A stretch of DNA of 59,152 bases. It comes from Chloroflexota bacterium. Its GTDB lineage: Bacteria > Chloroflexota > Dehalococcoidia > JACPQK01. Shown here one piece after another: positions 11,838-21,378 of the stretch (positions are counted from its first letter, which is position 1; every line of letters begins with the position of its first letter). Location of the stretch: the NCBI GenBank assembly GCA_016190505.1, contig JACPQM010000021.1, positions 1 through 59,152 on the forward strand. The letters run 5' to 3'. A model generated the notes under the pieces. The model worked only from the letters and a program-made list of their open reading frames with translations. It ran no database searches and had not been told where the DNA came from. The translations under genes and the position numbers were made by a program.

Positions 11838-12512
11838 GTGCCAAAGAACAACACCAGGAAACGCGACAAGAAGCCCCGCCGGGGCAGGCGAATAGCCAGC
11901 GCCCTGCTCAACGCTGGCTTGATACTCCTGCTGGTGGTACTGACGCTTGCCCTGGGTGGAGCGCTGGCCCGCATCTTCGGCATATGGGGCGGCGACGAGG
12001 CGGACCACCAGGCTGCCCAGGCCGCTCAGCAGCTCCAGGACATAGCCACCGCCTCGGCTGTCCAGCAGGGGACGCCCGCACCCAACACCCCAGCAGGGCC
12101 ACCAAAGCGCATGGGGCCGGTGGAGGTCTCCACCACTGAGGTGGACCTGGGGCAGGTCCCCATCAGCCGGTGGGTGACCCCAAGCTTCAAGGTGCGTAAC
12201 GTCGGCCAGGCCCCTCTGGTGCTCATGTTCGACAACGTGGAGACCCTGGAGGGCTGCTGACCACCCATGCCAGTGGCGGGTCCCGCCACCACAGGCAACG
12301 TCTATGTCTTCAACAACATGCAAGGCACCCCCCTGCCCCGGCCGGTCATGGGCAGCCTCGACCCGCAACAGGAGGTAGAGGTCTGGCTTCAGATGTCCAT
12401 GGACCCGGGCATGGCCGGACCCCACCACTTCCGCCTCAAGGTATACCTGGCCGAGGAAAGTGGCCAGGAGTACCCGCCCCTGGAGTTCCACGTCAAGGGA
12501 ATGTTCGGATAA
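11838..12512 (+). CDS. Membrane-anchored DUF1573-like protein interrupted by an in-frame TGA at 12258-12260 (candidate selenocysteine codon or pseudogene)
   Basis: ORFs 11838-12260 and 12267-12512 are in the same frame: '...FDNVETLEGC-TGA-PPMPVAGPATTGNVYVF...'. N-terminal basic tail plus TM helix. 'VDLGQVPISRWVTPSFKVRNVGQAPLVLMFDNVETLEGC' resembles the DUF1573 fold, which carries a 'SCGCT' motif at this position. A 7-bp-stem/3-nt-loop (GUC) hairpin lies 13 nt downstream of the TGA. Confidence 0.4.
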
Positions 12513-12533: not shown

Positions 12534-12559
12534 GTAGGGGCGACCGGCCGGTCGCCCCT
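12534..12559. repeat. REP hairpin 'gtaggggcgaccggccggtcgcccct'
   Basis: Perfect palindrome; further copies at 19382-19409 and 19450-19477 (variant), and relatives at 28064-28091, 29990-30150 and 32095-32250. Confidence 0.6.
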
Positions 12560-12622
12560 TGACAGTACCGTCGGCAAGGGCTAGTATGTAGTCGTAAACC
12601 CTCACCCCCTGGGTGTGGGTAT
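12559..12622 (+). promoter_or_regulatory. Sigma70-type promoter (TTGACA-17-TAGTAT) plus operator 'CACCCCCTGGGTGTGGGTAT' upstream of csoR-copA
   Basis: The operator sits between -10 and the SD/ATG of csoR. Matches the GC-rich ATACCCC-N-GGGGTAT type of CsoR-family operators. Confidence 0.6.
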
Positions 12623-12631
12623 GGAGGCAGG

Positions 12632-12898
12632 ATGAAGCCGGAGACCAAGGCAGACGCCTTGAAGCGCCTGAACTACATAGAGGGGCACCTGAGCGGGGTG
12701 CGCCGCATGATCGAGCAGGACCAGTACTGCGTGGACGTGCTCAAGCAGATGTACGCCGTGCGCCAGGCCATTCGCAAGCTGGAGGCGCTCATTCTGGATG
12801 GCCACCTGCACACCTGCGTCGTCCACGGCATCCGGGACAACCGGGAGGAGCAGGTGGTCAACGAGCTACTCGACCTGTACAACCTGGCCGAGAAATAG
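12632..12898 (+). CDS. csoR: Copper-sensing transcriptional repressor CsoR (DUF156 family)
   Basis: 88 aa; DUF156 core 'YIEGHLSGVRRMIEQDQYCVDVLKQ...LDGHLHTCV' with a C...H...C ligand set typical of CsoR (rather than RcnR). Directly upstream of copA. Confidence 0.85.
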   Translation: MKPETKADALKRLNYIEGHLSGVRRMIEQDQYCVDVLKQMYAVRQAIRKLEALILDGHLHTCVVHGIRDNREEQVVNELLDLYNLAEK

Positions 12899-12907
12899 AG
12901 GGGCATT

Positions 12908-15478
12908 TTGGGCGAAACCAAACGTGCAGACGGCGTAGGGGCGCACGGCCGTGCGCCCCTACAGATGCCCATACGGGGCATGACTTGCGCCTCCTGCGTG
13001 GCCACCGTGGAAGGCGCCTTGAAGAGCGTGCCCGGCGTCAGCGCGGCCGTGGTCAACCTGGCCTCGGAGAAGGCGGCGGTGGAGATCAGCGATCCGCAGA
13101 AGGCCAACCTGCCCGAGCTGGTCAAGGCCGTCCACGAGGTAGGCTACGAGGTGGGCACTGAGAAGGTCACCATCTCCGTGGGAGATATGACCTGCGCCTC
13201 CTGTGTGGAGCACGTGGAAGGCGCTCTCCGCGAGCTGGCCGGGGTCACCCGGGCCGTGGTCAATCTGCCCACCGAGCGCGCCGCCGTGGAGTACATCCCC
13301 GGCCTGGTCGGCGTCGCCGACTTCCGGCATGCCATCGAGGATGTCGGCTACAAGTTCCAGGGCCTGGTGGAGGAGGGGGCCGCCGCTCTCGATAGAGAGC
13401 GCGAGGCCCGCCAGAAGGAGATCAGCCGCCAGCGCCGGAACCTGATCATCTCCTGGGCCCTAGGCCTGGTGATCATGGTGGGCACCTTCCAGCCGTACTG
13501 GTTCCTGCCCAGGGTCGTGCCCGCGTTCATGAACAATAAGATATTCCTGTTCTTCCTGACCACACCTATCGTCTTCGGGCCGGGCCGCCAGTTCTTCATC
13601 AACTCCTGGAATGGTCTCAAGCGCGGCCTGACCGACATGAACCTCCTCTACGCCACGGGAATCGGCGCCGCCTACCTTATCGCCGTCATCAACACCTTCT
13701 TCCCCGATGCCGGCTTCGGCGGGCGGGAGGCCACCTTCTACGAGGCGGCTGCCCTGCTCACCGCCTTCATCATCCTGGGCCGCTACCTGGAGGCGGTGAC
13801 CCGGGGGCGCACCTCCGAGGCCATCCGCCGCCTGATGAAGCTCCAGCCCAAGCGGGCACGGGTGCTCCGCGACGGACAGGAGGTCGAGGTCGCTGCCGAG
13901 GAAGTGCAGATAGACGACCTCTTGCTGGTCCGGCCCGGCGAGGCCATCCCCGTGGACGGCATGGTCACCGAAGGCTACTCCTCGGTGGACCAGTCCATGA
14001 TTACCGGGGAGAGTATCCCCGTAGAGAAGAAGGGGGGGGACGAGGTCATCGGGGGCACCATCAACAAGACCGGCGCCTTCAGGTTCCGGGCCACCCGCGT
14101 GGGCAAGGATACCGCCCTGGCCCAGATCATCAAGCTGGTGGAGGAGGCCCAGACCACCAAGGCCCCCATCCAGAAGATCGCCGACAAGGTGGCCGGCCAC
14201 TTCATCCTGGGGGTACACGCCCTCTCCCTGGCCGTGTTCCTGTTCTGGTTCTTCGTGGGCTTCGGCCTGTGGTTCAGCCCCGAGAGCCGCCTCATCCTTA
14301 CCCCCTACATGCTCACAGGTCTGGGCGTGTTCGGCTTCGCTCTACTGGTGTCGGTGACCGTGCTGGTTATCTCCTGCCCCTGCGCCGTGGGACTGGCCAC
14401 GCCTAGCGCGGTGATGGCGGGCACGGGCAAGGCCGCCGAGTACGGAATCCTGTTCAAGGGCGCCGACGCCCTGGAGAGCACCGCCCGCCTCCAGGTGGTC
14501 ATCTTTGACAAGACGGGCACCCTGACCAAGGGCGAGCCTTCCGTCACCGACGTGGTGGCCGTGGGCCGGAGCGAGCAGGAGGTGCTGCGCCTGGCCGCGG
14601 TGGCGGAGAAGAACTCGGAGCACCCGCTGGGCGAGGCCATCGTTCGAGGCGCCCGGGCCACAGGCATGGAGGTCCAGGACGCCGACGGCTTCGAGGCCAT
14701 CCCCGGCCACGGGGTCGAGGCCCGACTGAATGGCCGGACGGTCCTGCTGGGCAACCGCCGCCTTATGGCCCAGAGGAACGTCTCCCTGGACGGCCTGATG
14801 CCCCAGGCCGAGCGACTGGAAGGCGAGGGCAAGACCGCCATGTTCGTGGCCGTGGACGGCCAGCCCGCCGGTATCGTGGCCGTGGCCGACACTCTCAAGG
14901 AGACCTCCGCCCAGGCCGTCAAGGAACTCCACCGCATGGGCCTCCAGGTAGCCATGATCACCGGCGACAACCGCCGTACCGCCGATGCCATCGCCCGCCA
15001 GGTGGGCATTGACCGGGTGCTGGCCGAGGTGCTCCCCGAGGACAAGGCCAGCGAGGTGAAGAAGCTCCAGGCCGAGGGCCTCAAGGTGGCCATGGTGGGC
15101 GACGGCATCAACGACGCCCCTGCCCTGGCCCAGGCCGACTCCGGCATCGCCATCGGCTCGGGCACCGACGTGGCCAAGGAGACGGGCCACGTCATCCTGG
15201 TCAAGGACGACCTCATGGATGTGGTGGCAGCCATCCAGGTGGCCCGGCAGACCCTGCGCCTGATCAAACAGAACCTGGGCTGGGCCTTCGGCTACAATAC
15301 CGCGGCCATACCCATCGGGGCGGGCTTGCTCTACCCCTTCTTCTCCCAAGTGGTCAGCCCGGAGCTGGCCGCGCTGCTTATGGCCACCAGCTCCCTGTCG
15401 GTGACCATGAACACCCTGCGCATGAGGGGCTACATACCGCCCATCCGGCGGGCGCGGCTGGCGGAGGCGAAGGCATGA
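12908..15478 (+). CDS. copA: Copper-translocating P1B-type ATPase with two N-terminal HMA domains
   Basis: 856 aa; 2x 'GMTCASCV'; '[11 protein letters not shown]' (CPC), 'DKTGTLT', 'GDGINDAP'. Confidence 0.93.
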
Positions 15479-15672
15479 GTGCCAGCGTGATTGGCGCCGT
15501 CATCTACCTGGGCATCTCGCTGGTGGCGGCCCTGGTCTTCTTCGCCATCACCCTGGCCGGAGACTACACCTGGGTGGCCCGCATTGGCGGCAGCCTGTGG
15601 ATCTTCATGCTGGGCAACATCGTGCTCATGCCCCTAGTCATCCCCAGGGTGAAGAGGTGGCGGGGAGGCTAG
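15475..15672 (+). CDS. Small two-TM membrane protein, translationally coupled to copA (ATGA overlap)
   Basis: 65 aa, hydrophobic; start overlaps the copA stop. Confidence 0.4.
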
Positions 15673-15710
15673 CGTGGTAAGCATCGCTTGAGGGCAACAG
15701 GAGCCATAAG

Positions 15711-15980
15711 ATGCCCGTAATATCAATGTTCTATGGCATAATAGTTCAACTGTTCTTCTTCGATACAGACAAACATAATAGCCCGCACATTCACGTGAGA
15801 TATGCTGAGTTCACCGCTTCTATTGACATACACACAGCAGGAATCTTGGATGGAGACATCCCTCTGCGCCAACTTAGACTAGTCCAGGCATGGGTGGAAA
15901 TCCACCGCGATGAATTGATGGCTGACTGGGCTCTTGCCGTGGAGGGCAACACTCCGTTCAAGATTGAACCTCTGAAATAG
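15711..15980 (+). CDS. DUF4160-family protein
   Basis: 89 aa; 'HNSPHIHVRYAEF' motif; markedly AT-richer than its surroundings. Confidence 0.68.
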   Translation: MPVISMFYGIIVQLFFFDTDKHNSPHIHVRYAEFTASIDIHTAGILDGDIPLRQLRLVQAWVEIHRDELMADWALAVEGNTPFKIEPLK

Positions 15981-15990
15981 GGGGTAGTGA

Positions 15991-16227
15991 ATGATCCCAG
16001 ACGTGGTTGACTTTGAAATCCTGCCAGACTACCGGCTAAGGGTGACCCTGTCAAATGGCCGTAAAGGGGTGTTCGACGTGAAGCCATACCTTGACCGAGG
16101 AATTTTCACTGAACTGAAGGACTACAACTACTTCAGAAGGGGCAAAATCGCTTTCGGGACAATTACCTGGCCGAACGAACAGGACTTCAGCCCGGAGACA
16201 ATAGAAGCGAGGATGGAAGGGGAATGA
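15991..16227 (+). CDS. DUF2442-family protein (usual partner of DUF4160)
   Basis: 78 aa; 'LPDYRLRVTLSNGRKGVFDVKPYL'; AT-rich. The DUF4160/DUF2442 gene pair is a recurrent two-gene cassette. Confidence 0.68.
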   Translation: MIPDVVDFEILPDYRLRVTLSNGRKGVFDVKPYLDRGIFTELKDYNYFRRGKIAFGTITWPNEQDFSPETIEARMEGE

Positions 16228-16299
16228 GAAGGGGCTGGGGAGCGTAGGCATGGTAAGCCTCGCCCGGCGCAAGCCGCTTGTTGGAAAGGGTGTTTAGCT

Positions 16300-16923
16300 G
16301 TGGAACAGTGCCCCGAACCATTCGTAGTCCGGCTCGTCCGGCCCCCACTCCATATGATTCTCTGTGAGGGCTTGCGCAAGCGCACTGCCAGAGACTTTCA
16401 GGGTGTGATCGCTCAACTACTTCGGGAGATTGGTGGTGATGTGACGCCCGGGCCGATAGGAGCGGACGAAGGGGTAGACCTGCTGTGGAAGGCCACCGAC
16501 GGAGAGTTCATCGTCCAATGCAAGAAATGGAAGGCCAAAGTCGGTGTTCCTGTCGTGCGAGAGGTCTTCGGGGCGGCTATGCGGCACAAGTCCGCAGGTG
16601 CCATCATCGTGACCACAAGCGAGTTCACCGATGCAGCCAAAGACTGGACAATTGACCTCCGCATACCGCTTAGGCTGGTGGATGGCAAGCAGTTGTTTGA
16701 CTTGATGGACCAACGCATGCCAACTTTCGTGGCGAACGTCTTCAAAGAGGCCAATGTGGCTAGGTGCCCAGTGTGTGGGGATGGCGTGGACCTCCGCCTA
16801 GCCAAGGTATCCACGTCCTACGAGAACAAAGCGTATTACTTCTGGGCCGAGACTTGCCTCCGGTTGTTCCAGAGGGAACCCGGTCGCTTCGTCGGTGTGA
16901 AGTCTCCCAGAGCAGAAGGCTAG
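16300..16923 (+). CDS. Fusion protein: Mrr_cat-like restriction-endonuclease domain plus C-terminal YHS/TRASH metal-binding domain
   Basis: 'GADEGVDLLWKATDGEFIVQCKKWKAKVGVPVVREVFGA' (Mrr_cat: D..D...QCK), then 'CPVCGDGVDLRLAKVSTSYENKAYYFWAETC...FQREPGRF' (YHS-like). Confidence 0.55.
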   Translation: MEQCPEPFVVRLVRPPLHMILCEGLRKRTARDFQGVIAQLLREIGGDVTPGPIGADEGVDLLWKATDGEFIVQCKKWKAKVGVPVVREVFGAAMRHKSAGAIIVTTSEFTDAAKDWTIDLRIPLRLVDGKQLFDLMDQRMPTFVANVFKEANVARCPVCGDGVDLRLAKVSTSYENKAYYFWAETCLRLFQREPGRFVGVKSPRAEG

Positions 16924-16924
16924 C

Positions 16925-18058
16925 GTGGTCAGCATCGCCCGGCGCAACCTCTTCGCCGAACGGGGCCGCCTGTTCATAAGCGTGGGTGGGGTGGCCTTCG
17001 CCGTGTTGCTTATCCTGACGCTCTTGGGCCTCTATCGCGGCTTCACCAGGGCCTTCACCCTCTACATTGACAACGTCAAGGTGGACCTGTGGGTAGCCCA
17101 GCAGGGGGCCCGGGCCGACATGATGCACTCGGTGTCCCTGATGCCCCGGGGTACTCAAGGCAAGCTCGAAGCCGTGCCTGGAGTTGAGGAAGTGCACCCC
17201 TTCATCGGGCGCTCGGTGGTCTTTCCCTGGAAGGGAGAGGCTGTGAGCACCTACCTGGTGGGGTACGACGTGGACTCCAACCTGGGAGGGCCGCTCCGAG
17301 TGGCCCAAGGGAAAGCTGAGCCGGGGCCCGGAGAGATCATCGTTGACAAGGTATTCTCCCGCAACAAAGGGATCAGCCTGGGCGACCGGCTGCCCATCGG
17401 AGGGTCGCTGAGGGCGGACAGCAGTCCGCCCCTACAGGTGGTGGGCGTCGCCGAGGGCGGCAACACGGGCCTCTTCCAGTTTTCCTTCGTCTCCCGAAAC
17501 GAGGCCGAAAGTCTGTTGCAGATGACGGGCTTCGCCAACTACTTCCTGGTGCACCTGGACAGGGGCCAGGACCCGGCCCAAGCCGCGGCGCGCATCGAGG
17601 CGGCAGCCCCTGGGGTGAAGGCATTCACCGTTTCGGCCTTCTCCGAGAGCAACCGCGAGCTGCTCACCGAGATCTTCCTGCCTATCATCGCCGTCCTGGT
17701 GCTCATCGGTTTCGGCGTGGGCACCGTAGTGATAGGGCTGACCATATACACCGCCACCATGGAGAAGTCCCGGGAGTATGGCGTGCTCAAGGCCATCGGG
17801 GCAACCAACCGCCGCCTTTACCGGATAGTCCTGGAGCAGGCGATCATATCGGACATGCTGGGCTATGCCCTGGGAGTGGTGCTGGCCTTTGTCGTGGTCG
17901 GAGCGGCCGAGCGGTTCGTGCCCGTGTTCGTGGCCGACCTCCAAGTCCTGGACCTGGCGGCAGCACTGGGCATTGCCCTGCTCATGGGCGGACTGGCGTC
18001 ATACTTCCCGGTGAGCCGGCTGGTGCGCCTGGACCCCGCCCTGGTGTTTCGAGCGTAG
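16925..18058 (+). CDS. ABC transporter permease, FtsX/MacB-like
   Basis: 377 aa; N-terminal TM, large periplasmic domain, three C-terminal TMs; followed by its ATPase. Confidence 0.78.
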   Translation: MVSIARRNLFAERGRLFISVGGVAFAVLLILTLLGLYRGFTRAFTLYIDNVKVDLWVAQQGARADMMHSVSLMPRGTQGKLEAVPGVEEVHPFIGRSVVFPWKGEAVSTYLVGYDVDSNLGGPLRVAQGKAEPGPGEIIVDKVFSRNKGISLGDRLPIGGSLRADSSPPLQVVGVAEGGNTGLFQFSFVSRNEAESLLQMTGFANYFLVHLDRGQDPAQAAARIEAAAPGVKAFTVSAFSESNRELLTEIFLPIIAVLVLIGFGVGTVVIGLTIYTATMEKSREYGVLKAIGATNRRLYRIVLEQAIISDMLGYALGVVLAFVVVGAAERFVPVFVADLQVLDLAAALGIALLMGGLASYFPVSRLVRLDPALVFRA

Positions 18059-18059
18059 C

Positions 18060-18905
18060 ATGGCCACCGATACGGTACTCGAGCTGGTGGGCGTGACCCG
18101 GGTGTTCGGGGAAGGCGCCGGGCAGGTGGTGGCTGTGGAGAGGGCGGACCTACGGGTCGGGAAGGGGGAGTTGCTGCTTATCATGGGCCCCTCGGGCTCG
18201 GGGAAGACCACGCTCCTCACCATGGCCGGGGGCTTGCTCCCGCCCACCTCGGGCCACATCCGCCTGGGCGGCCGCGACCTCACCGCTCTGTCCGATGGAG
18301 AACTCTCCCGCCTGCGGCAGCAGCACATCGGCTTTGTCTTCCAGTCGTTCAACCTGCTGGCCGCCCTGACCGCGCTGGAGAATGTCGAGGTGGCCCTGGG
18401 GCTAGCGGGCAGGGACGGTCAGGGCGCCAAACGGGAGGCCCGCCGTCTGCTGGAGGACCTGGGCCTGGGACACCGCCTCCACCATCACCCGCGAGACCTG
18501 TCAGGTGGGGAGAAGCAGCGGGTATCCGTGGCCCGCGCCCTGGCCAACAACCCCGAGCTGGTGCTGGCCGACGAGCCTACCGCCAACCTGGACTCGCAGA
18601 AGGGCCGTGAGGTGGTAGAGCTGCTGCGCAAGGTGGCCAAGGAAATGGGCAAGACGGTCATCGTGGTCAGCCACGACCACCGCATTCGGGAGCTGGCGGA
18701 CCGGGTGCTGTGGCTGGAGGACGGCAAGCTCAAAGAGATGGAGGTACACCGGGACCCGGTCTGCGGCATGGAGATAGACCCCGCCCGGGCCAAGGCCAGC
18801 CTGGCGTACGAGGGCAAAGTCTACTACTTCTGTGCCGCAGGCTGTCTCCAGTTGTTCCAGAAGGACCCCGGTCAGTTCTTGGCGTCACAGTCATCCGCCC
18901 TGTGA
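18060..18905 (+). CDS. ABC transporter ATP-binding protein (MacB/LolD-like) fused to a C-terminal YHS metal-binding domain
   Basis: Walker A 'GPSGSGKTT', signature 'LSGGEKQRVSVARAL', Walker B 'LVLADEPT'. C-terminal 'DPVCGMEIDPARAKASLAYEGKVYYFCAAGC...FQKDPGQF'. Confidence 0.85.
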   Translation: MATDTVLELVGVTRVFGEGAGQVVAVERADLRVGKGELLLIMGPSGSGKTTLLTMAGGLLPPTSGHIRLGGRDLTALSDGELSRLRQQHIGFVFQSFNLLAALTALENVEVALGLAGRDGQGAKREARRLLEDLGLGHRLHHHPRDLSGGEKQRVSVARALANNPELVLADEPTANLDSQKGREVVELLRKVAKEMGKTVIVVSHDHRIRELADRVLWLEDGKLKEMEVHRDPVCGMEIDPARAKASLAYEGKVYYFCAAGCLQLFQKDPGQFLASQSSAL

Positions 18906-18938
18906 GGGCAACATTCACCGTTAGGAGGGACAAGACAA

Positions 18939-19106
18939 ATGGAAAAGAAGGTTGTTCTGTGTAAGGACTGCCATTGCTGCCCCGCCGTGGAGTTCGACGA
19001 GGACAGGGTGCGCATCGGCGAGGGCTACAACACGACCATTCTGACCAAGGAACAGTGGAACATTCTGGTGGAGAAGGTCAGGTCCGGGGAGCTGGGGGAA
19101 GCGTGA
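18939..19106 (+). CDS. Small cysteine-rich protein (55 aa, below the ORF-track cutoff)
   Basis: 'MEKKVVLCKDCHCCPAVEFDEDRVRIGEGYNTTILTKEQWNILVEKVRSGELGEA'; good SD 'taggaggg' 8-16 nt upstream; C-x2-C-x-C-C motif. Confidence 0.45.
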   Translation: MEKKVVLCKDCHCCPAVEFDEDRVRIGEGYNTTILTKEQWNILVEKVRSGELGEA

Positions 19107-19187
19107 CCTCGGGCAAGGCCGCGTCGGCGGTGGGCGAACGCCCTGGCGGGCGTGGAAACTTGTGTCATACCTGTGAAGGAGGTAACC

Positions 19188-19364
19188 ATGGCTAAGGACC
19201 TGGTGTGCGGGATGGAAGTGGACCCCAAGAAGGCAGCCGCCAAGTCGGACTACAAGGGGCAGACCTACTACTTCTGTGCCCCCGGCTGCAAGCGCGCCTT
19301 CGACAAGGAGCCGGAGAAGTTCCTCAAGGGCCAGGCCGGCGGCCACATGGGGATGCACCACTAG
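19188..19364 (+). CDS. Stand-alone YHS-domain protein with a His/Met-rich tail
   Basis: 'MAKDLVCGMEVDPKKAAAKSDYKGQTYYFCAPGCKRAFDKEPEKF...GGHMGMHH'; SD 'gaaggagg' upstream of ATG 19188. Confidence 0.7.
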   Translation: MAKDLVCGMEVDPKKAAAKSDYKGQTYYFCAPGCKRAFDKEPEKFLKGQAGGHMGMHH

Positions 19365-19381: not shown

Positions 19382-19477
19382 GTAGGGGCGACCGGCCGGT
19401 CGCCCCTACGATCGCCTGGTAACGTCTAATCTCGGGTACGAGCAAGACTGTAGGGGCGGACGGCCGTCCGCCCCTAC
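19382..19477. repeat. Two tandem REP hairpins ('gtaggggcgaccggccggtcgcccctac' and 'gtaggggcggacggccgtccgcccctac')
   Basis: Perfect 12-bp stems 40 nt apart, immediately downstream of the YHS gene; terminator-like / BIME-like. Confidence 0.65.
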
Positions 19478-19489
19478 GATTGCTCCGGC

Positions 19490-20059
19490 ATGGCGCTCGC
19501 AGGGCAACGTGAAGGGGTATTTGTATCTGAAAGCATGGTGACTGAGAGACCGCGACCCCGGCGCCGGGGTGTCCTCGTCCTCGTGGTGGTCCTGGTACTG
19601 GCGTTCCTGGCGATGTTCGTCTATGCTTTCCAGTCCACCGTCCTGGTGCGCCGCGCTGGCATCCCCGAGAAAGTGGGCGAGTTGGAGCTGGTCAGCAAGG
19701 TGGAAGGAGAGGCGGCCATCGCCCAGGTCGGACGCCTGCACGGCACCGACATTGCCCTGAAAGACGCTTACATCGCCAAGTATGCCCATTCAGGCCTTCA
19801 GTTGACCGCCTGGGTGGGCAAAGCAGAGGATACGACCGCGGCAGCCGAGCTGCTCCGTAGGATGGTCGAGGGCATAAACCGCGGGGGATCACCCTTCTCC
19901 AACCTGCGCCAGCAGAGGATCGAGGACCAGGGGGTGTACCAGGTGGACGGGCCAGGCGGACGGCACTACTTCTACGCCTCTGACAACAAAGTCATCTGGC
20001 TCACCCTGGAAGGCACAGGTTACCAGACTCTATTGCCGATCGCAGTGAGTGCGTTCTAG
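19490..20059 (+). CDS. Hypothetical membrane-anchored protein
   Basis: 189 aa; N-terminal TM helix then a soluble domain; no recognised motif. Confidence 0.45.
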   Translation: MALAGQREGVFVSESMVTERPRPRRRGVLVLVVVLVLAFLAMFVYAFQSTVLVRRAGIPEKVGELELVSKVEGEAAIAQVGRLHGTDIALKDAYIAKYAHSGLQLTAWVGKAEDTTAAAELLRRMVEGINRGGSPFSNLRQQRIEDQGVYQVDGPGGRHYFYASDNKVIWLTLEGTGYQTLLPIAVSAF

Positions 20060-20555
20060 CGAGGGACAAGATGTGAACAGGTTTCGCTTCCCCTGGACAA
20101 TAGGAGTCGCCCTTACCCTGGTGGCGGTCGCCCTGGGGGCGTGCTCGTCACCGGGCTCGCCGCCCACTTCGACTGCTCCTCCCCCTTCGGGAACCACCGG
20201 CAAGTCGCCCACCAACGGGCTGGTGCAGACCCACTCCGGAGGCAACGTGACCATCGAGGTGAAGTGGCGGGGGAGTCCCGACGGGTCGGGGCTGGCCTTC
20301 CAGGTGACCATGGACACTCATTCGGCAGACCTGGACCAATACGATCTGGGTAAGCTGGCCCTGCCGCCGGACGACGCGGGACGGGAGTACGCTCCGACCG
20401 CCTGGGTGTCCGCCCCGGGCGGTCACCACCGAGAAGGCACCCTGAAGTTCCCCGTGCCAGACTCCTTGGCGCTGGGCAGCGCCCGCTCGGTCCAGCTTAT
20501 CATCCGGGGCGTTGCCGGAGTGGCTGAACACGCCCTGGTATGGCAACTGGCATGA
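20049..20555 (+). CDS. Hypothetical lipoprotein (lipobox 'ALGAC')
   Basis: Signal peptide plus Cys; Pro/Ser/Thr-rich linker; beta-rich domain; start uncertain. Confidence 0.45.
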   Translation: MRSSEGQDVNRFRFPWTIGVALTLVAVALGACSSPGSPPTSTAPPPSGTTGKSPTNGLVQTHSGGNVTIEVKWRGSPDGSGLAFQVTMDTHSADLDQYDLGKLALPPDDAGREYAPTAWVSAPGGHHREGTLKFPVPDSLALGSARSVQLIIRGVAGVAEHALVWQLA

Positions 20556-20668
20556 TTCTGCCTCTCGCCTGAACGCATATGGGGGCTGTGGCGTCGGATC
20601 AGACGGATCGGACGCATCGGTCAAATCGGTCTGGCCACAATCGTGGTTGGTAGGAAGAAGGCATCTGC

Positions 20669-21199
20669 GTGAGAAGACACCTTGCCGTCGCAGTGGCCGC
20701 TGCCGCGCTGCTCCTGGCGGTGTACCTGGGCATCATCACTCTGGCCCAGGGATGGTCGCACGCTCTGGGCCAAACTCTCGACCTGTGGTACTGGGTTGTA
20801 CTGCTAGCCGCTGGCTTTGGCACCCAGGCCGGGCTTTACTCCTTCATCCGCCAGGGGCTACGGGAGTCCCGACGAGTCGGGACCACCGCCTCGGTGGCTG
20901 CCTCAGGCGGCGTGTCCACCGGCTCCATGGCGGCCTGCTGCGCCCACCACCTGAGCGACGTGCTGCCCGCCCTGGGCCTGGCGGGAGTGGCCACTTTCCT
21001 GACCAGCTACCAGACAGTGTTCATCCTGGCCGGGGTGCTGTCCAACCTGGTGGGCATCACCATCATGCTGGAGGCGATCCAGCGCCACGGGCTGTCCCCA
21101 TGGGTCTCGACCTGGCCGTGGAACATGCGCCGGGTCAAGCTGGGGGCCATTGCCTCTTCGGCAGTGGTAGTATCAGTGGGCGTCGTTATGAGCCTGTAG
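20669..21199 (+). CDS. Polytopic membrane protein with an intramembrane 'CCAHH' motif
   Basis: 176 aa; 5 predicted TM helices; 'SMAACCAHHLSDVLPALG' is a potential metal-binding cluster. Confidence 0.5.
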   Translation: MRRHLAVAVAAAALLLAVYLGIITLAQGWSHALGQTLDLWYWVVLLAAGFGTQAGLYSFIRQGLRESRRVGTTASVAASGGVSTGSMAACCAHHLSDVLPALGLAGVATFLTSYQTVFILAGVLSNLVGITIMLEAIQRHGLSPWVSTWPWNMRRVKLGAIASSAVVVSVGVVMSL

Positions 21200-21313: not shown

Positions 21314-21378
21314 TTGACACAAACCATGCGGCACCCTATAATCGAGGTTGATACCCATACCCCCTGGGTAGGGGATGG
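21314..21378 (+). promoter_or_regulatory. Consensus sigma70 promoter (TTGACA-17-TATAAT) plus operator 'ATACCCATACCCCCTGGGTAGGGGATGG' upstream of ccmE
   Basis: Perfect -35/-10 hexamers with a 17-nt spacer. The downstream pseudo-palindrome is near-identical to those ahead of csoR and the DUF1573-like gene. Confidence 0.6.

Follow-up and report, generated by a model that had tools for sequence, protein, structure and literature searches.

The question raised by this locus is whether three YHS-type domains lying within 3 kb of each other, one behind a putative nuclease domain, one at the end of an ATP-binding cassette (ABC) ATPase and one standing alone, are parts of the same metal-responsive machine. 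The DNA is a stretch of 59,152 nt from a Chloroflexota bacterium of the Dehalococcoidia (positions 1 to 59,152 of contig JACPQM010000021.1, the whole of which we call the window), and the domains are encoded between positions 16300 and 19364. All three are genuine YHS homologues, and their clustering is far beyond chance. A sequence-only reading made earlier had taken them for one module, in which a metal-sensing exporter works together with a metal-regulated nuclease or a repurposed fold. Our answer is in two parts, namely that the ATPase with the YHS tail, its FtsX-type permease and the stand-alone YHS protein would belong to a native, copper-gated module, and that the fusion of the nuclease domain (Mrr_cat) to YHS would be an accident. 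We give the two parts together a probability of roughly 55%. The native module would read csoR-copA-smp-permease-ABC ATPase-YHS-p55-YHS, as one transcription unit with one promoter and a CsoR-type operator-like site. The genes concerned are these:

12632 to 12898, plus strand: csoR, copper-sensing repressor family (Pfam Trns_repr_metal 88.8 bits; NCBIfam RicR-like, E 4e-17; Cys...His...Cys visible).
12908 to 15478, plus strand: copA, a P1B-type Cu ATPase with two HMA domains (TIGR01525 644 bits, TIGR01511 586 bits).
15475 to 15672, plus strand: smp, a 65-aa two-helix membrane protein without a Pfam family, whose start overlaps the copA stop.
15711 to 16227, plus strand: cassette 1, with DUF4160 encoded at 15711-15980 (Pfam 80.6 bits) and DUF2442 at 15991-16227 (54.5 bits).
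16300 to 16923, plus strand: the chimeric Mrr_cat-YHS open reading frame (ORF), 207 aa (Pfam PF04471 and a degenerate YHS).
16925 to 18058, plus strand: FtsX/MacB-type permease with an extracytoplasmic MacB_PCD domain (MacB_PCD 55.5 bits, FtsX 50.3 bits).
18060 to 18905, plus strand: ABC ATPase (aa 1-225; ABC_tran 116.5 bits) with a C-terminal YHS (aa 231-274, nt 18750-18881; 48.7 bits).
18939 to 19106, plus strand: p55, a 55-aa Cys-rich protein, found downstream of the ATPase in the closest relatives only.
19188 to 19364, plus strand: stand-alone YHS protein, 58 aa, from ATG 19188 with a GGAGG ribosome-binding site (Pfam YHS 62.4 bits).

The gathering threshold of Pfam YHS (PF04945) is 30.3 bits and the cut-off of Mrr_cat (PF04471) is 21. 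In the Pfam check the earlier domain calls (Mrr_cat, FtsX/MacB permease, MacB/LolD/DevA-like ATPase, YHS) all hold, with the tail of the Mrr_cat protein staying below the threshold. The 58-aa YHS protein with its His/Met-rich tail is also as described; it ends GGHMGMHH, in a tail of Gly, His and Met, and has an orthologue in the related locus L003. So is the position of the module next to csoR and copA, which lie directly upstream, and its relatives recur beside copper genes. The claim of three CGMxV...YYFC motifs is right for two of them. The ligand motif D-x2-C-G-M...(Y/H)-F-C-x3-C is present in the ATPase tail (DPVCGM...YYFCAAGC) and in the stand-alone protein (DLVCGM...YYFCAPGC), but the Mrr_cat tail departs from the literal motif.

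The first part of our answer builds on the ATPase. PF04945 is found on 116 of its 120 best database matches (54-80% identity), and where the organisms behind these matches are named they are Chloroflexi or Dehalococcoidia, as metagenome-assembled genomes (MAGs). A scan of metagenomes with an alignment of the C-terminus gave 25 further fusion loci, and the ATPase gene always lies downstream of FtsX-type permease genes, one or, more often, two. The ABC_tran+YHS ATPase with an FtsX/MacB-type permease is a widespread family, mostly of Chloroflexi where the source is named. The architecture is not new as a sequence, being abundant in databases under generic names; a metal-gated type VII ABC machine as a mechanistic type seems to be undescribed in the literature that we searched. 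When contigs were scanned with the full-length ATPase alignment, the search used generic ABC patterns (DEPTANLD, MGPSGSGK); its 80 hits were ordinary ABC ATPases, and a motif screen found a YHS tail in none of them.

Conservation within the family is strong, and here the expectation that the cysteines would be kept in homologues was borne out. In an alignment of 44 members the YHS residues D232, C235, F257, C258, C262 and F266 are invariant and M237 is nearly so, and the ATPase motifs are intact and invariant in all of them. The nucleotide-binding domain (NBD) is of the MacB/LolD type with Walker A, Walker B, signature and H-loop in place, and with the permease it makes up a type VII ABC system. 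Neither partner reaches the NCBIfam cut-off of a named subfamily, the ATPase scoring 235 against 295.8 bits for DevA (TIGR02982) and 219 against 307.8 for LolD (TIGR02211), and the permease 55.8 against 290 for DevC and 42 against 362 for lolCE; it is also below the cut-off for MacB and far under those of the FtsX models. The linker between the two domains is only about six residues long, because the NBD ends near residue 225 (DevA model) and YHS begins at 231. An AlphaFold (AF2) model of the ATPase is confident throughout (pLDDT 93, pTM 0.84, tail blocks 88-97). Searches of the PDB with Foldseek and by sequence returned NBDs only, those of MJ0796, MacB, YbbA, LolD, HrtA, YtrE, BceA and FtsE, with 221-230 columns aligned; the YHS tail is covered by none of these solved ABC proteins.

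The second line of evidence is the company that the ATPase keeps. Eight independent ABC-YHS loci, the window included, have copper genes in the flanking DNA that was fetched. L003/L004 have the 3' end of copA and smp upstream and a YHS protein downstream, L006 has two CsoR genes, YHS, DUF411 and two cupredoxins, and L090 and L095 have CsoR and CopA. In L098 there are CopA and smp, in L100 CopA, smp, a multicopper oxidase and YtkA, and in L110 CopA, a cupredoxin and a TRASH protein. A Pfam scan of 119 neighbour ORFs from 11 loci put transporter domains at the top, followed by Cupredoxin_1 (4), E1-E2_ATPase (3) and Peptidase_M23 (3), with two each of Cu-oxidase_2 and HMA. These counts are approximate because gene calling in the fetched loci was imperfect: a greedy choice of the longest ORF picked antisense ORFs in high-GC DNA, and a filter based on GC at third codon positions helped in high-GC loci and not in those of lower GC. 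Up to this point we deal with observations, namely a domain architecture, conserved ligand residues, an operon context and copper genes that recur nearby.

The Peptidase_M23 genes bring up another explanation, which is that the machine transports nothing and instead signals as FtsEX does, with ATP-driven extracytoplasmic movements that control a cell-wall enzyme, such as an M23 peptidase or an L,D-transpeptidase, when copper rises. Peptidase_M23 is found near ABC-YHS in L098, where it is immediately downstream, and in L104 and L092; L098 also has YkuD and LysM, and the structural matches include FtsE and further NBDs of mechanotransmission systems. Against this, the window operon, L003 and L006 have no M23 or YkuD gene, the association is seen in three of the 11 loci and is non-adjacent in two of these, and the permease falls well short of the FtsX models. 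We regard signalling of this kind as improbable.

In type VII ABC systems (MacB, LolCDE, FtsEX, HrtBA) ATP hydrolysis in the cytoplasm drives the movement of extracytoplasmic domains, and in MetN, ModC and MalK the binding of a ligand at extra C-terminal domains gates the ABC ATPase. An adenylyl cyclase of Mycobacterium phlei has a C-terminal YHS on an 8-residue linker and is activated by 1-10 uM Cu2+, and one Asp and three Cys were proposed as the copper ligands of this YHS (PMC4626032). By analogy with the cyclase YHS and with the C-terminal regulatory domains of MetN, ModC and MalK, we propose that copper gates the ATPase. The YHS tails of the ATPase dimer would bind cytoplasmic Cu(I), and the binding would switch on (license or stimulate) ATP hydrolysis, so that the extracytoplasmic action of the permease would be engaged only under copper load. 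The target of the permease might be copper at the membrane or its outer face, a copper-binding or copper-damaged molecule, or a partner or enzyme in the envelope. Metal binding, the direction of the regulation and the substrate are what we infer here. Conserved ligand cysteines, a csoR-copA locus and recurring copper neighbours together make a metal-sensing FtsX-type ABC machine a reasonable inference. That the ABC_tran+YHS ATPases and their FtsX-type permeases form a widespread, undescribed class of copper-gated type VII ABC machines, in which a cytoplasmic YHS switch couples the Cu(I) load to ATP-driven work at the outer face, is a more tentative proposal; if it is true, Chloroflexi and other phyla would have a second arm of copper defence, independent of CopA.

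The second part of our answer concerns the Mrr_cat-YHS ORF. Mrr_cat itself is clear (PF04471, 83.1 bits, aa 26-136, nt 16375-16707), its motif residues D...QxK are present (GADEGVD...IVQCK) and align with the same residues in the homologues P0002-P0017, and Foldseek matches it to MspJI, AspBHI, AF1548 and Hjc, which points to a PD-(D/E)xK-type fold. Nuclease activity is uncertain because the model of an inactive REase, NA-iREase1, was passed as well (33.1 vs 27 bits). No DNA-recognition domain, winged-helix or other, was found in the ORF, which thus lacks the make-up of an Mrr or type IV restriction enzyme, and the PADLOC matches are at the domain level only, to the nuclease domain of larger proteins. 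The tail scores 22.7 bits against the 30.3 that YHS requires (E 1e-4, aa 157-199, nt 16768-16896). It is 52% identical to the ATPase YHS over 50 aa (BLASTP E 8e-17), and its identity with the stand-alone protein is 39%. When 1.84 billion representatives were searched exhaustively with HMMER, it matched 578 proteins at E <= 0.001, many of them in several repeated stretches, and these look like multi-YHS proteins by the pattern of the matches. By its sequence the tail is a true YHS homologue despite the low score. It does not carry the ligand motif, reading CPVCGD...YYFWAETC where the family has DPVCGM...YYFCxxGC: the Asp has become Cys, the nearly invariant Met has become Asp and the invariant Cys of YYFC has become Trp.

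Several findings tell how this ORF may have come about. The combination of Mrr_cat with YHS was found only in the window's own protein P0001, in two large database searches covering about 15 billion proteins. The closest Mrr_cat proteins, P0002-P0004 (55-58% identity), have longer N-termini and end ...ADILKKNHS, which aligns to ...ANVFKEAN of the window, the very place where the tail starts; the window protein continues past their end as ...FKEAN-VARCPVCG. In the closest related operon, L003, where the ATPase is 78% identical, the smp stop abuts the permease start and there are no cassettes. The extra segment of the window measures 1.25 kb and has 45-60% GC (cassette 1, 45-53%) vs 65-70% in the flanks. 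The junction between smp stop and permease start is present in three copies, at 15672, 16248 and 16923, spaced by 576 and 675 nt (repeat family D1):

15667 to 15698, plus strand: junction copy A, smp stop and a truncated permease start of five codons and a stop (GTG GTA AGC ATC GCT TGA, 15674-15691).
16228 to 16297, plus strand: junction copy B, in which a diverged 3' end of smp and TAG come before 15 codons left over from the permease start (MVSLARRKPLVGKGV and stop, from ATG 16250 to TAG 16297).
16918 to 16947, plus strand: junction copy C (GGCTAG C GTG GTC AGC ATC GCC CGG CGC AA), in which the chimeric ORF stops and the working permease starts, with a Shine-Dalgarno-like GAAGG.

Since these three copies bound them, we recognise two cassettes, one with DUF4160 and DUF2442 and one with the Mrr_cat gene. 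It could be objected that the window is a MAG contig and that a repeat-flanked segment of deviating GC, and the fusion with it, is an artefact of metagenome assembly. An artefact is very improbable, because the junction copies have diverged and share exact runs of at most 12-13 nt, which we take to be below the usual k-mers of assemblers. The homology between tail and ATPase is 63% at the nucleotide level and is no collapsed repeat, and similar repeat-bounded cassettes are found in an independent Chloroflexi MAG (L002).

The source of the tail can be followed further. DNA homology between the ORF and the ATPase gene starts abruptly at a shared TCAAAGAG (16742-16749) and spans the linker and YHS. 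Among 120 ABC-YHS proteins the best match of the tail is the window's own ATPase, and the exhaustive HMMER search returned no closer donor. Between tail and ATPase the Nei-Gojobori method gave a dS of 0.93 and a dN of 0.42, a ratio of 0.45, over 49 codons, compared with a dS of about 2, a dN of 0.17 and a ratio of 0.08 between the true orthologous ATPases of the window and L003. From the best match, the dS of 0.93 and the ratio of 0.45 vs 0.08, it follows that the tail is a fairly recent copy made in the same lineage and since then under much weaker constraint. The events may be pictured like this. A second, partial permease/ATPase-YHS unit would once have preceded the working one, and two small foreign cassettes would have inserted at the smp/permease junction, each bounded by a junction copy. 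The Mrr_cat cassette would have replaced the interior of the partial unit, and at the TCAAAGAG microhomology its frame would have read through into the leftover YHS-coding 3' end of the decayed ATPase-YHS gene. As far as the sequence allows us to judge, the fusion is most likely such a chimeric accident and not a conserved component of a metal module.

There are a number of observations that weigh against one or the other part of our two-part reading, and they should be considered together. Eight other ABC-YHS loci, about half of those long enough to judge, have no copper genes. Among them L005 and L168/169 show the order TetR-permease-ATPase, L005 and L167 lie in housekeeping synteny, L092 and L104 have cytochrome c or Rieske genes downstream, and L102, L103 and L105 make up the rest. 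The association with copper is thus recurrent, not universal, and since about half of the informative loci are without copper genes, copper may be neither the substrate nor the universal signal, which takes away from the earlier claim of a metal exporter. The one PDB relative with a YHS-like stretch that searches by sequence turned up is a subunit of phenol hydroxylase, whose Cys cluster binds structural zinc. No paper on ABC-YHS fusions, and no experiment on any ABC-YHS protein, was found in the literature searched. In the Mrr_cat ORF the tail is still an intact reading frame and keeps the residues that determine the fold, AF2 predicts a YHS-like fold for it (pLDDT 86-93, with YHS rows in the input alignment), and the gained Cys recreates a C-P-x-C-G knuckle resembling the C4 zinc finger with which distant Mrr_cat proteins end. 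Its dN/dS is below 1 at 0.45, and this estimate comes from 49 codons. As for the operon, the promoter scan covered sigma-70-type sites only, and for that reason an internal promoter within the cassettes is conceivable.

The copper-free loci, be they of the TetR or the housekeeping kind, and the phenol hydroxylase subunit are in keeping with the YHS tail being a structural zinc or dimerisation module, or a metal-buffering, chaperone-like site, on a transporter with a non-metal substrate (lipid, peptide, antimicrobial or haem-like). The copper linkage would then be just the operon arrangement of one lineage. The solved NBD relatives do handle macrolides, lipoproteins, haem and peptide antibiotics. 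We find this explanation unlikely, though it has to be taken seriously. The families that recur most among the neighbours include those of copper homeostasis, genes for CopA, CsoR, cupredoxin or multicopper oxidase are present in eight independent loci, the Asp and three Cys together with the Met of CGM correspond to the residues suggested as copper ligands in the YHS of the cyclase, and stand-alone YHS proteins co-occur in the same loci.

The intact ORF, which abuts the permease start, also bears on the sequence-only view that Mrr_cat-YHS is a functional metal-regulated nuclease, or a repurposed fold, working as a module with the ABC-YHS exporter and the YHS protein. The D...QxK residues, the match of the fold to MspJI, AspBHI and AF1548, a tail modelled as folded, and the change of Asp to Cys, by which a C-x2-C...C like that of the C4 zinc finger arises, would all suit it. 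This view did not survive the comparison with other genomes and we find it very improbable. The protein is a singleton in two very large databases, and the nearest orthologous operon does without the gene, which here is part of a low-GC insertion flanked by junction repeats. The protein is truncated at the N-terminus compared with its homologues, the nearest of which stop where the tail begins, and in that tail the invariant Cys and nearly invariant Met have been replaced by Trp and Asp and constraint is relaxed. A secondary exaptation of the YHS-derived tail, for instance as a substitute for a zinc finger, is less likely than a chimeric accident, and nothing supports it. We therefore keep to a native copper-gated module and an accidental fusion.

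In the public annotation the Mrr_cat protein (P0001) has 183 aa and begins at TTG 16372. This start is probably too far downstream, because homology to P0002-P0005 reaches to at least 16318 (EPFVVRLVRPPLHMILCEGL vs EFIRMLVTPQPYMIFCDRL), and even so the gene is shortened at the N-terminus in relation to its homologues.

Elsewhere, homologues of Mrr_cat sit in unrelated and partly mobile contexts: beside integrase and ParB genes (L001), inside a glutamate synthase operon next to a DUF4258 cassette (L002) and beside an acyl-CoA dehydrogenase (L170). A cassette that specifically targets ABC-YHS operons is ruled out, with P0002-P0005 lying beside acyl-CoA dehydrogenase, glutamate synthase or integrase/ParB genes. 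In L002 (6920-9072) and L001 (474-1808) close homologues belong to arrays of short cassettes that have direct repeats as their borders. The DUF4258 cassette of L002 is followed by a 176-nt stretch that repeats the 3' end of the glutamate synthase gene upstream (95-100% identity), and the Mrr_cat gene comes after it; in L001 a 32-nt repeat in three copies flanks the Mrr_cat gene and the next gene. The window and L002 suggest that small Mrr_cat-bearing cassettes insert at gene junctions of operons and duplicate the junction, a less likely generalisation. No recombinase was seen beside these cassettes. Boundaries of the integron attC type were considered and rejected, as the repeats are copies of host junctions and inspection by eye, in place of a systematic search, gave no convincing core sites.

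The control of the operon seems to lie at its upstream end, and the sites involved are the following:

12559 to 12622, plus strand: promoter-like site TTGACA-17-TAGTAT (12559-12587), then the operator-like AACCCTCACCCCCTGGGTGTGGGTAT (12597-12622), from a promoter and motif scan.
19382 to 19477, plus strand: two perfect 28-nt palindromes that close the transcription unit (19382-19409 and 19450-19477; -26 to -27 kcal/mol).

AACCCTCACCCCCTGGGTGTGGGTAT is a GC-rich pseudo-palindrome of the CsoR type, ten bases past the promoter, and a predicted operator; together with the repressor and the CopA P1B-ATPase it gives the locus the parts of a CsoR-controlled cop operon. The promoter at 12559-12587 is the only sigma-70-like one between 12300 and 21300. 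The genes from csoR through the YHS gene are all on one strand and mostly abut or overlap. With hairpins following after 19364, these facts are read most simply as one transcription unit under the control of CsoR, with the ABC-YHS genes in it. A further CsoR-type operator upstream of 16300, which had been suggested as a check, is absent. No known RNA family was found in the window.

A 65-aa or similarly short two-helix protein follows copA in four loci (window 15475-15672, L003 114-314, L098 about 2040-2364, L100 4228-4488), with the smp start overlapping the copA stop and no Pfam family. As smp trails copA even where the ABC genes lie elsewhere (L098, L100), we assign it as a partner of CopA, probably a small associated subunit, and rule it out as a partner of the ABC transporter. 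The protein p55 is likewise ruled out as a general ABC-YHS partner, having just four clusters in the whole database, all from close relatives. The mechanically called copA ORF begins at TTG 12908 and translates through a hairpin at 12935-12962, and the true start is probably an ATG at about 12965, after the hairpin.

That hairpin is one of four copies of a 28-nt palindrome (12534-12561, 12935-12962, 19382-19409 and 19450-19477), none being found elsewhere in the 59-kb window. They lie upstream of csoR, overlapping the -35 box, in the csoR-copA gap and, twice, after the YHS gene. They have the form GTAGGGGCG-NN-CGGCCG-NN-CGCCCCTAC, in which the NN pairs co-vary (AC/GT, CA/TG, GA/TC), and the hairpins, predicted at -23.5 to -27 kcal/mol, are without a U-tract. 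They could be REP-like elements or RNA or DNA sites specific for this operon.

Directly upstream of csoR the ORFs 11838-12260 and 12267-12512 share a frame and are parted only by TGA 12258-12260 (...VETLEGC-TGA-PPMPVAG...). With Cys in place of the stop there is a sub-threshold match to DUF1573 (18.2 vs 26.1 bits), and the split ORF 11838-12512 could be a membrane-anchored Cys-Sec selenoprotein, a case of read-through or a pseudogene. On the other side, between the YHS gene and ccmE (19490-21199), there are three genes of 189, 168 and 176 aa without a Pfam or NCBIfam family, the third coding for a membrane protein with a CCAHH motif, and genes of this group recur beside ABC-YHS or cop genes in L003, L109 and L110. 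A perfect TTGACA-17-TATAAT promoter and then ACCCATACCCCCTGGGTAGGGGAT follow at 21314-21376, just upstream of ccmE (21391), ccmF and ccmH, and the core ACCCCCTGGGT is common with the csoR operator. It is possible that ACCCATACCCCCTGGGTAGGGGAT is a second CsoR site that places cytochrome c maturation under the control of copper. In Corynebacterium glutamicum ccsA and ccsB are copper-induced (PMC3140484).

Active research is devoted to type VII ABC systems, MacB, LolCDE, HrtBA and FtsEX among them, and to our knowledge none has been described as gated by a metal; we also know of almost no experimental metal biology in Chloroflexi. If the YHS tail is a copper switch, the family would be a simple, purifiable model for how a small metal-binding domain gates an ABC ATPase, and it would hint at a copper defence in the cell envelope of Chloroflexi that has so far gone unrecognised. 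The Mrr_cat-YHS ORF is in turn a caution for those who mine domain architectures, as a striking one-off fusion, even beside genes that suggest a function for it, may be a by-product of cassette insertion and gene decay.

Compared with known systems, the ABC-YHS pair goes with the type VII systems (MacB, LolCDE, HrtBA, YbbAP, YtrEF, BceAB, FtsEX, DevBCA), with which it shares a permease with MacB_PCD and FtsX and an NBD that is 39-43% identical and superposes at 1.5-2.6 A on MJ0796, MacB, YbbA, LolD and HrtA. The solved ones, however, have no C-terminal metal-binding domain on the NBD. Unlike DevBCA and MacAB-TolC, the operon has no adjacent membrane-fusion gene (HlyD/DevB/MacA) in the window, L003, L005 or L006, and the sub-threshold scores on the equivalog models set the window pair apart from DevBCA/MacAB and LolCDE. 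MetN, ModC and MalK are an analogy of working principle only, in that an extra C-terminal domain of the NBD senses a cytoplasmic ligand and gates hydrolysis. Their regulatory domains have a C2/TOBE-like fold, belong to importers and are inhibitory, whereas YHS here is treble-clef-like.

The TRASH domain was reportedly proposed as a metal-binding domain by Ettema and colleagues in 2003. The P1B-type copper ATPases, with HMA and sometimes YHS (Pfam PF04945 description), resemble our ATPase in carrying a small Cys-based metal module on a transport ATPase in copper loci; they are P-type and not ABC, and the module here is C-terminal on a soluble subunit. The Mrr_cat proteins with a topoisomerase-type C4 zinc finger (P0006-P0010) have, like the chimeric ORF, a small C-terminal Cys-knuckle domain that starts C-P-x-C-G. 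They differ in their N-terminal membrane helices and a conserved four-Cys finger (PF01396), whereas the window tail is derived from YHS, has three Cys and is without orthologues.

In Campylobacter jejuni FetA (DUF2318 and YHS) with FetBCD is also a YHS genetically coupled to an ABC transporter in a metal-related cluster, with two permease genes and one ATPase gene, and the cluster serves iron uptake together with FetMP (PMC10783030); its YHS is predicted to be periplasmic and is on a separate membrane protein, unlike ours. A close parallel in design is the class IIIc adenylyl cyclase of M. phlei (PMC4626032). Its catalytic domain is replaced here by an ABC nucleotide-binding domain, and the cyclase is itself activated by copper. 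In both, a YHS on a very short linker ends a dimeric, nucleotide-using domain and offers the same proposed ligand set of one Asp and three Cys.

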